Source: Escherichia coli
GTDB taxonomy: Bacteria; Pseudomonadota; Gammaproteobacteria; Enterobacterales; Enterobacteriaceae
Direction: 5' to 3' (one strand)
Assembly: GCF_003334815.1 (NCBI RefSeq)
Contig: NZ_QOWO01000003.1
Length of the DNA stretch: 64,000 nucleotides
Positions 4,679 through 5,008 of the stretch are shown here, one piece after another; the stretch's first letter is position 1, and the number at the start of each line of letters is the position of its first letter. The position numbers and the translations under genes were made by a program. The notes beneath the pieces were generated by a model. The model did not search any database. It saw only the letters and a list, made by a program, of their open reading frames with translations, and was not told where the DNA came from.

Positions 4679-5008
4679 ATGAAACGCTTTCCGCTATTTC
4701 TTTTATTCACCCTGCTCACGCTGTCCACCGTTCCGGCCCAGGCCGATATTATCGACGACACCATTGGCAATATTCAGCAGGCGATTAATGACGCTTATAA
4801 CCCTGACCGTGGGCGAGACTATGAAGATTCGCGCGACGACGGCTGGCAGCGTGAAGTGAGCGACGATCGGCGCAGACAATATGACGACCGCCGCCGCCAG
4901 TTTGAAGATCGCCGCAGGCAGCTGGACGATCGCCAGCGCCAGCTTGATCAGGAGCGTCGGCAACTGGAGGATGAAGAGCGGAGAATGGAAGATGAGTATG
5001 GGCGATGA
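4679..5008 (+). CDS. yjdP: small secreted protein with periodic Arg/Asp/Gln-rich repeats
   Basis: 109-aa ORF; signal peptide MKRFPLFLLFTLLTLSTVPAQA then repeated RRRQ-x-DD/ED heptad-like units; matches my recollection of YjdP. Confidence 0.8.
   Translation: MKRFPLFLLFTLLTLSTVPAQADIIDDTIGNIQQAINDAYNPDRGRDYEDSRDDGWQREVSDDRRRQYDDRRRQFEDRRRQLDDRQRQLDQERRQLEDEERRMEDEYGR

Follow-up and report, generated by a model that had tools for sequence, protein, structure and literature searches.

Between rpiB and the end of the phosphonate operon, the stretch of Escherichia coli DNA analyzed here (the window, 64,000 nucleotides of contig NZ_QOWO01000003.1 from assembly GCF_003334815.1) encodes a small protein in which blocks of arginine and aspartate recur every seven residues behind an apparent signal peptide. 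This raises the questions of whether the gene is maintained for its protein, what shape the charged repeat may give that protein, and under what conditions the cell makes it. The repeat itself, DDRRRQL, is already known and is described by the RefSeq, NCBIfam and Pfam annotations, so that finding it again adds little.

Identity, distribution and selection of yjdP

The DNA of the window resembles that of E. coli K-12, and the local gene order is alsR (2912-3835, minus strand), rpiB (4161-4610, plus strand), the open reading frame (ORF) of interest (4679-5008, plus strand) and phnP (5155-5913, minus strand), the last of these marking the end of the phosphonate operon. Beyond phnP, the window continues with phnO, phnN and phnM of the same operon. 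The ORF starts with ATG and has 109 codons plus stop for a product of 109 amino acids (aa); its delimitation draws on the ORF call, RefSeq, NCBIfam and the codon-position analysis given below. It is E. coli yjdP, and the gene name given in the initial annotation was correct. The RefSeq product name is “DDRRRQL repeat protein YjdP” in every genome listed. The NCBIfam equivalog model NF041443 (DDRRRQL_YjdP) matches the protein with 147.9 bits (E=8.9e-44), above its curated whole-protein cut-off of 90 bits, and aligns residues 1-103 with positions 1-101 of the 101 in the model. The Pfam family PF28054 (YjdP) is precomputed for 120 out of 120 relatives among the matches listed, 100%-identical entries included. 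Our Pfam-A scan of YjdP, for which the model set did not contain PF28054, gave no significant match. In the literature on yjdP the name appears in tables or as a map landmark and we found nothing functional; searches under “b4487” and “DDRRRQL” found nothing relevant.

We found yjdP in 5405 out of 5426 complete E. coli genomes. One strain carries an IS1 insertion within yjdP, and the gene is therefore dispensable at least there. Among 1.84 billion representative proteins there were 53 matches to YjdP; those of full length are all YjdP-like, and the remainder consists of fragments or of generic matches to coiled coils. When one genome was scanned for each GTDB species, 77 yjdP loci were obtained, all from Enterobacteriaceae. 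They come from Escherichia, Citrobacter, Klebsiella/Raoultella, Kosakonia, Kluyvera, Buttiauxella, Cedecea, Atlantibacter, Pluralibacter, Yokenella, Leclercia, Phytobacter, Pseudocitrobacter, Trabulsiella and other genera. One yjdP-bearing record is labelled Chryseobacterium, which is probably a mislabel. Down to ~40% identity the orthologues keep one architecture, in which the signal peptide is followed by the motif “ADIIDDAIGNIQQAINDAY”, an acidic linker that differs in length, the RRRQL-type heptads and, last, an acidic tail.

We assessed selection by comparing K-12 yjdP, codon position by codon position, with the same-length orthologues of Citrobacter and Trabulsiella. The repeat region contains 20-27 differences at third codon positions versus 0-5 at first plus second positions, and over the whole gene the ratio of synonymous to non-synonymous codon changes is ~2:1. 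As judged from these substitutions, yjdP is under strong protein-level purifying selection. The initial annotation had made its reading depend on translation of the ORF, and the third-position bias supports this on evolutionary grounds. One may ask whether yjdP could nevertheless not encode a functional protein, the periodicity arising as a side effect of an antisense ORF or of a GC-rich repeat of 21 bp in the DNA. DNA repeats are present, and a 108-aa ORF does lie opposite the gene (4703-5029, minus strand). However, the between-genus substitutions fall overwhelmingly at third codon positions of the plus-strand frame, which makes the antisense ORF a shadow. The architecture and signal peptide are kept over the range of identities given above, the mRNA is induced 10-fold, and the DNA repeats are only ~75% identical whereas the peptide repeat is better conserved. 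We see practically no chance that such a by-product accounts for yjdP, a reading that, as far as sequence evolution can show, is already refuted.

The genes around yjdP differ between species. yjdP stands tail-to-tail with phnP in ~66 of 77 species. The gap was measurable in 67 loci, and in 20 of these the stop codons of the two genes overlap by 4 nt; the gap in K-12 is 146 bp and holds two GC-rich palindromic repeats. We down-weighted a functional link between yjdP and the phn genes because the two neighbors are convergent and because 11 of the 77 species keep yjdP with no phnP found in ~6 kb downstream. Our reading of the synteny is that it is positional, with a possible antisense interaction, rather than a mark of common function. 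On the upstream side, a hybrid histidine kinase directly adjoins yjdP in 26 species; this arrangement is probably ancestral and the als-rpiB block of K-12 a replacement. The PADLOC defence models returned noise only (PbeC, E=0.019).

Signal peptide, heptad repeat and predicted helices

The first 22 residues (4679-4744, plus strand) form, by inspection, a Sec-type signal peptide with an n-region MKR, an h-region FPLFLLFTLLTLSTV of 15 residues and a c-region PAQA that provides an A-x-A motif. Cleavage is predicted at A20-Q21-A22, before D23. This agrees with the pattern of Sec/signal peptidase I substrates, which have a positive n-region, 10-15 hydrophobic residues in the h-region and small side chains at -3 and -1, and lack a lipobox cysteine. 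Cysteine is absent from the entire protein, which is thus not a lipoprotein. Nearly all orthologues have A-x-A followed by D, N, E or Q, and the four exceptions end in TRA, VRA or VHA before D. We infer that YjdP is exported and cut after A22. The h-region is polymorphic in E. coli: a 9-bp unit encoding Phe-Thr-Leu varies in copy number (4706-4729, plus strand), and the 112-aa allele of MNCRE44 and the 118-aa allele of FCI17 carry extra TTCACGCTG units. Longer alleles of this type occur in 5 of 60 evenly sampled complete E. coli genomes.

The mature protein begins with an N-terminal amphipathic helix, DIIDDTIGNIQQAINDAY (residues 23-40; 4745-4798, plus strand), assigned from the alignments and AlphaFold2. 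It is the longest block still recognizable across genera, with the family consensus DIIDDAIGNIQQAINDAY; AlphaFold2 places a helix at 21-40 with low confidence (pLDDT ~56-66). An acidic low-complexity linker of variable length follows (4799-4834, plus strand), which AlphaFold2 predicts to be disordered (pLDDT <50). In orthologues, 13-30 residues with a mean net charge of -3 separate the end of the N-helix from the first heptad.

Six DDRRRQL-type heptads occupy residues 62-103 (4862-4987, plus strand) and are encoded by degenerate 21-bp DNA repeats. In register from D62 they read DDRRRQY, DDRRRQF, EDRRRQL, DDRQRQL, DQERRQL and EDEERRM, and are followed by EDEYGR. Within the repeat segment, the autocorrelation at a lag of seven residues is 0.60 for charge and 0.53 for hydrophobicity, and residue identity at the same lag is 0.57; each of these values was reached by 0 out of 20,000 shuffles of the same segment. 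The repetition is less extensive in the DNA. Tandem Repeats Finder called a 21-bp period at 4862-4934 (3.5 copies, 75% matches) and again at 4883-4944 (74% matches), a repeat search found three 42-nt copies spaced 21 nt, and recognizable repetition is confined to about the first four units. The heptad positions are constrained across the family as D/E, D/E, R, R/Q, R (92%), Q (78%) and L/Y/F/M, and in 78 of 80 orthologues the hydrophobic residues spaced seven apart number exactly six.

The repeat number does vary, with 5, 6 and 8 heptads observed. A 102-aa E. coli allele lacks one heptad, and the 123-aa protein of E. albertii has two additional ones; among the 60 evenly sampled complete E. coli genomes, the 330-nt form is dominant and there is one 309-nt allele. 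The DNA repeats can clearly slip or recombine. That the number of units is nearly constant at six across genera despite slip-prone repeats suggests selection on the length of the helix. These results agree with the initial annotation on several counts. It had described a clear signal peptide, and the pattern of MKR, h-region and PAQA before D23 recurs in orthologues; it had reported a seven-residue charged periodicity, and the six in-register heptads exceed all 20,000 shuffles. Loss of the periodicity in orthologues, which it had named as an outcome that would speak against it, was not seen, and the variation between strains that it proposed to look for by a homolog search was found. Its range for the repeats, 4861 to 4980, holds for the protein periodicity and is generous for the DNA repeat.

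AlphaFold2 predicts a long C-terminal alpha-helix over residues 53-108 (4835-5002, plus strand). We ran the monomer with a 14-sequence alignment and then with a 48-sequence alignment. In the first model pLDDT is 87-96 over residues 61-100, and in the second it is 93-96 at the helix centre; such a long helix is predicted by AlphaFold2 for coiled coils as well as for single helices. The pTM of 0.35-0.43 indicates no confident tertiary packing, and the 48-sequence alignment (pTM 0.43) still gave no confident docking of the N-helix on the long helix. Foldseek found no match of the model in the PDB. A sequence-profile search of the PDB returned generic coiled-coil chains only, the best being M protein at E=0.0034, which is at noise level.

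The charges in this helix are arranged in a regular manner. Over the 46-residue repeat, there are 34 opposite versus 2 like charge pairs at i+3/i+4 spacing. The observed difference of 32 lies ~5 sd above shuffles (mean difference 1.2, sd 6.2) and was reached by 0 out of 20,000 of them. Drawn as a helical wheel, the repeat shows Arg interleaved with Asp/Glu and no separate faces. Position 7 is the sole hydrophobic position of the heptad (L 72%, Y 16%, F 5% and M 5% in orthologues) and gives a hydrophobic residue every seven positions, a seam that single alpha-helix (SAH) domains lack; in its dense opposite charges and few like pairs the repeat has the arrangement expected of such domains. Over 76 orthologues, the mean net charge of successive heptads is +0.5, +1, +1, 0, 0 and -1.6, with -1.7 for the tail, and the count of Arg to Lys is 1398:26. 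The 87 residues of mature YjdP include 20 Arg and 4 Gly and carry a net charge of about -8 in K-12 and of -5 to -13 in orthologues.

The upstream region and a probable RcsB operator

We aligned the 130 nt before the start codon of 79 yjdP loci and found two conserved blocks. Block 1, “TTGAGAtTcCTCCGCT”, starts 71-76 nt before the ATG, and block 2, “tTgatTAacgT”, lies at a fixed distance downstream of it. Both are conserved despite differing upstream genes, which include rpiB, the hybrid histidine kinase and transporters. In the window, block 1 corresponds to TTGAGATTCATCCACTAC (4607-4624) and surrounds an RcsB-box-like operator, TGAGATTCATCCAC (4608-4621, plus strand), inside which sits the rpiB stop codon TGA (4608-4610). 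The core T.RGA....TCY is present in 79 out of 79 yjdP upstream regions, at -70 to -75 from the ATG. Compared with the published RcsB box consensus TN(G/A)GAN4TC(T/C)NA (Huesa et al., NAR 2021; PMC7913699), the K-12 site has 7 of 8 specified bases, the last A being C. The boxes at bdm/osmC, osmB and yaiY likewise lack the final consensus A.

As a control, we searched for the core in eight K-12 genes that are at the top of the Lol-inhibitor list discussed below or are classical Rcs targets. It occurs within 250 nt upstream of seven of the eight, namely bdm/osmC (a common site), osmB, rprA, ivy, ycfJ and yaiY, and was not found within 250 nt upstream of ypeC. The background frequency is 17 matches in 138,014 positions. 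The ycfJ box, TCAGACTCCTCCGA, is very similar to the consensus of the yjdP family, and the rprA box occupies -49 to -36 of the annotated +1 (centre -42.5).

The second conserved block holds a predicted -10 hexamer, TAATGT (4645-4650, plus strand), which is TAACGT in most genera. If TAATGT is the -10 element, yjdP transcription would start near 4657, leaving a 22-nt leader, and its box would be centred at -42.5 as in rprA. A Shine-Dalgarno sequence, GAGG (4668-4671, plus strand), can be read 7 nt before the ATG, and its region is conserved in orthologues as GAG(A/G)CTGG. A consensus sigma-70 scan found no promoter at yjdP. The -10 element is weak. The terminator-like matches from the corresponding consensus scan, which gave no others, are antisense and inside the repeat and were dismissed as not credible. 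An Rfam scan of 4400-5400 found nothing.

Published expression data fit the conserved box. In the ranked RNA-seq tables of a study of a LolCDE inhibitor (PMC5105897), yjdP mRNA rises 9.5- to 10.6-fold, from ~10.6 to 100-112 normalized expression units, and the same list includes osmB, bdm, wca, ivy, mliC, ypeC, ycfJ, spy, cpxP and sigma-S genes. rpiB is not among the matches listed in these tables, and read-through from rpiB is therefore unlikely as far as these tables go. The induction agrees with that expected of an Rcs target under Rcs-activating conditions. Because sigma-S and Cpx genes are part of the listed response as well (PMC5105897), yjdP could also be under a different regulator. 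Our literature search, which included the supplement of one Rcs-related paper, found no rcsB-mutant or RcsB-binding result for yjdP. We also considered the response regulator LmvR, whose gene accompanies that of the hybrid kinase found before yjdP in many species, as the factor that recognizes the motif. It was rejected because its published site is AT-rich (ATTTTA-N3-ATTAGA) and because K-12 has no LmvKR yet keeps the motif and the induction. Taken together, yjdP is probably a direct RcsB-activated gene. The conserved RcsB box upstream of yjdP has apparently not been reported before.

Candidate roles of YjdP and comparison with known systems

The initial annotation had suggested that the heptads form a coiled coil or bind ions or polyanions. 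The first suggestion holds for a helical region whose periodicity is kept, and is not supported for the canonical type, which requires two hydrophobic core positions per heptad, a and d, whereas YjdP has one. The heptads could still be taken for a canonical coiled coil in which the chains associate through the Leu/Tyr/Phe stripe as parallel or antiparallel homodimers or trimers, in the manner of a leucine zipper or of Lpp, to build an oligomeric periplasmic strut. The hydrophobic spacing is strictly seven residues through six heptads, as in coiled coils (lag-7 values of 0.53-0.60). With Leu at d, the sequence predicts attraction between g (Arg) and e' (Asp/Glu) of a parallel dimer over the first four heptads, and the conserved plus-to-minus gradient would suit an antiparallel pair. 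The N-helix has an a/d-like pattern as well (I25, I29, I32, I36, A39), and the profile search matched M protein (E=0.0034) and GCN4-type chains (E=0.55) weakly. However, the alternative core places are mostly Arg: Leu at d puts the fourth residue of the unit (R 54%, Q 23%) at a, and Leu at a puts the third (R 55%, E 22%) at d. A parallel dimer would bring Arg against Arg in its core and an antiparallel one Asp against Asp (e-e'), both of which are unfavourable. Moreover, the charges are already satisfied inside one helix, the PDB profile matches do not rise above noise and Foldseek was empty. We regard the canonical coiled coil as a possibility to be held only tentatively. The helix is better fitted by a salt-bridge-stabilized, SAH-like rod with a leucine stripe, which we take to be monomeric.

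As to what YjdP might bind, one proposal is that the Arg triplets form a surface for ions or polyanions (phosphate, phosphonate, polyphosphate, lipopolysaccharide (LPS) or colanic acid), perhaps tied to the phn operon. The 20 Arg in the mature protein and the frequent tail-to-tail arrangement with phnP speak for it. Nevertheless, the protein is net negative in K-12 and in its orthologues, Arg is interleaved with Asp/Glu around the helix so that there is no basic face, and essentially every Arg is paired with an acidic residue. In addition, yjdP and phnP are convergent and hence not co-transcribed, 11 of 77 species keep yjdP with no phnP found nearby, and the conserved upstream site is RcsB-box-like, no Pho box having been noticed by eye. 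With a net charge of about -8, polyanion binding is unlikely and this part of the earlier suggestion is not supported; as a full explanation of YjdP it is very improbable. Conversely, YjdP might be an acidic periplasmic decoy or buffer for cationic peptides, lysozyme, polyamines or Mg2+/Ca2+ that is made, once Rcs is active, together with Ivy and MliC, which inhibit lysozyme. Rcs responds to cationic peptides and lysozyme, and the net negative charge and the Asp-rich linker are compatible with such a role. The induction of yjdP together with ivy and mliC in the inhibitor tables (PMC5105897) points the same way. This evidence is, however, purely circumstantial; YjdP lacks a binding motif and is not homologous to Ivy, MliC or PliC, and we consider the decoy unlikely. 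Binding of cations, polycations or a protein partner would be more plausible than binding of polyanions.

We favour, with moderate confidence, a model in which an RcsB-activated, Sec-exported YjdP forms a salt-bridge-stabilized helical rod. yjdP would be transcribed from its own promoter with weak core elements and activated by phosphorylated RcsB on the box centred near -42.5, so that YjdP would be made upon envelope damage. The Sec pathway would export it and the signal peptide would be cut after A22. The mature protein is predicted to be soluble, acidic and ~10 kDa, with an N-helix of 18 residues, a disordered linker and a helix of ~55 residues. Asp/Glu and Arg placed 3 to 4 residues apart would hold this helix by a dense intra-helical ladder of salt bridges. 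One Leu/Tyr/Phe/Met per heptad would leave a narrow hydrophobic stripe, a single weak binding edge. YjdP would thus be a stiff rod whose conserved charge gradient runs from three basic heptads to an acidic end. Its biochemical job is a guess, namely that of an Rcs-induced periplasmic protective or binding factor. It is likewise a guess that its ligands are cationic, or that a protein partner binds through the Leu stripe and N-helix, these being likelier than polyanions. We think it a long shot that YjdP is a secreted SAH rod of selected length (six heptads, ~8 nm) commanded by Rcs, which would serve in the periplasm as a spacer of defined length or soak up cationic peptides or lysozyme.

yjdP deserves attention as a gene that is near-universal in E. 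coli, has a very clean sequence design and lies behind a perfectly conserved RcsB-type operator. The findings touch no long-standing open question. Should the RcsB dependence hold, the Rcs envelope-stress response would gain in yjdP a simple new reporter as well as an effector, which would bear on studies of Lol, Bam and LPS inhibitors. YjdP would also be a tractable model for salt-bridge-stabilized helices in the periplasm. If the SAH-rod reading is true, no SAH-type protein before YjdP would have had a defined role in the envelope of Gram-negative bacteria, and the Rcs response would have a new direct effector.

We compared YjdP with known families and systems. The protein in the window is a member of the NF041443 family, which by the precomputed annotation of its relatives corresponds to PF28054, and we saw no difference from it; the definition of this family is purely descriptive and gives no function. 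Lpp, a lipoprotein whose heptads have a full a/d hydrophobic core and form trimers, and TolA domain II, which is membrane-anchored and Ala/Lys-rich, are periplasmic and have long repetitive helices, as predicted for YjdP. YjdP differs from them in having neither an anchor nor a full core. Hydrophilins are defined by Gly above 6% and a hydrophilicity index above 1; Gly makes up 4 of the 87 mature YjdP residues (4.6%), below that limit. YpeC (DUF2502), with ~108 aa, a signal peptide and a low-complexity body rich in Arg, Asp, His and Trp, resembles YjdP in outline and differs in having no sequence similarity to it and no heptad periodicity. In the tables of the inhibitor study, ypeC is among the genes most induced by Lol inhibition (42-fold; PMC5105897). 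The Rcs response may therefore include a class of charged low-complexity periplasmic proteins.

The remaining two comparisons are the closest. Spy, CpxP and ZraP are, like YjdP with its predicted export, small, all-helical, highly charged, envelope-stress-induced periplasmic proteins with a signal peptide, and the tables of the inhibitor study list spy and cpxP as induced in the same experiment as yjdP (PMC5105897). In contrast to them, YjdP has no LTXXQ motif in its mature sequence, no match to that family in the Pfam and PDB searches and no homology to Spy or CpxP. Its predicted regulator is RcsB rather than CpxR or BaeR, and it is predicted to be a single rod rather than a helical-hairpin cradle. 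SAH (ER/K) domains are found, for example, in myosin VI/X and caldesmon; a true SAH is usually free of a hydrophobic stripe and pairs Lys/Arg with Glu instead of Asp. YjdP shares with them the dense i to i+3/i+4 ladder of opposite charges and the long, isolated predicted helix with no tertiary contacts. It differs in that its charges are almost exclusively Asp and Arg, where classical SAH domains combine Glu with Lys/Arg, and in its hydrophobic residue at every seventh position; it is also bacterial and predicted to be secreted. On this comparison, YjdP appears most like SAH domains in its charge design and most like Spy and CpxP in its setting, and a member of neither group.

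Genes and motifs upstream of yjdP

The TGA at 4608-4610 of the window, within the conserved TTGAGA motif, is the shared end point of differing upstream genes: in K-12 the gene is rpiB, in O157 and many genera that of a hybrid sensor kinase. We located the hybrid sensor kinase upstream of yjdP at 146-2416 of L003, a locus from E. coli O157:H7 strain C1-057, and at 26 other related loci. LmvK, the kinase encoded on the EHEC "OI-167 genomic island", directly adjoins yjdP on its upstream side in 26 Enterobacteriaceae species. The LmvK-yjdP arrangement looks ancestral and not EHEC-specific; it is the als-rpiB block that appears to be the replacement.

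E. coli strains with rpiB upstream carry an inverted repeat, TCATCCA ... TGGATGA (4613-4635), in the right half of the region of the RcsB-box-like core; it is missing in the consensus of other genera (TCCTCCGCTAC). The repeat may be an rpiB 3' hairpin that overlaps the yjdP promoter. Over-expression of CsiR lowered yjdP RNA 3.5-fold, and CsiR ChIP-seq gave a "genic" peak attributed to yjdP (PMC5217608).

Signal-peptide length and disruption of yjdP

The hydrophobic part (h-region) of the YjdP signal peptide contains a 9-bp copy-number polymorphism, TTCACGCTG, encoding Phe-Thr-Leu (4706-4729 of the window; 1569-1925 of locus L001; 101-439 of locus L086). K-12 reads FTLLTLST at this site; the FTL unit occurs three times in MNCRE44 YjdP (112 aa) and five times in FCI17 YjdP (118 aa). 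In an even sample of 60 complete E. coli genomes, approximately five had a longer allele. The h-region is extended from ~15 to ~24 residues, which could alter export or cleavage of YjdP. In strain FLI21 (NZ_CP139808.1), yjdP is interrupted by an IS1-family element and annotated as two pieces; the gene is therefore dispensable in that strain at least.

The yjdP-phnP spacer and convergent overlap

In the window, the yjdP-phnP spacer is occupied by GC-rich palindromic repeats, CCCCTCNCCCCNNTGGGGAGAGGG, at 5032-5055 and 5095-5134, the second of which is followed by TTAGGGTGAGGGG. A third copy lies outside the spacer, on the minus strand at 32218-32241, and an intergenic query including both spacer repeats had a median of three match sites per E. 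coli genome. Only 3314 of 5432 records reached ≥ 80% coverage of this query, and the spacer is thus variable among strains. No Rfam family matched the palindromic repeats of the spacer; the site is listed as a putative G-quadruplex/hairpin motif by Kaplan et al. 2016 (PMC5100583).

We examined yjdP 3' ends for overlap with phnP (loci L005, L007, L021, L030, L039, L063 and others). The two convergent genes share 4 nt at their stop codons in 20 out of 67 species, and the gap is 2-3 nt in two further species. Such arrangements leave no space for a terminator, and the transcripts must therefore overlap. In published LolCDE-inhibitor RNA-seq data, phnP reads rose 2.9- to 3.6-fold alongside the 10-fold rise of yjdP (PMC5105897); the phnP increase could represent read-through from yjdP, provided that the library lacked strand specificity.

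CACSKA010000007.1, titled "Chryseobacterium sp. 18061", contains a yjdP-phnP-phnO locus of typical enterobacterial type and is probably mislabeled as to organism or a contaminated assembly. In strain C1-057, phnO is annotated as frameshifted (L003, 3651-4086).

Comparison with YpeC

K-12 ypeC (8002-8328 of locus L092) encodes a protein of 108 aa, in which a signal peptide is joined to a low-complexity body rich in Arg, Asp, His, Trp and Tyr. No RcsB-box core was detected within 250 nt upstream of ypeC. Like YjdP, YpeC is small, charged and preceded by a signal peptide, and ypeC shows some of the strongest induction under Lol inhibition. This likeness hints that charged small periplasmic proteins form a class in the envelope-stress response.
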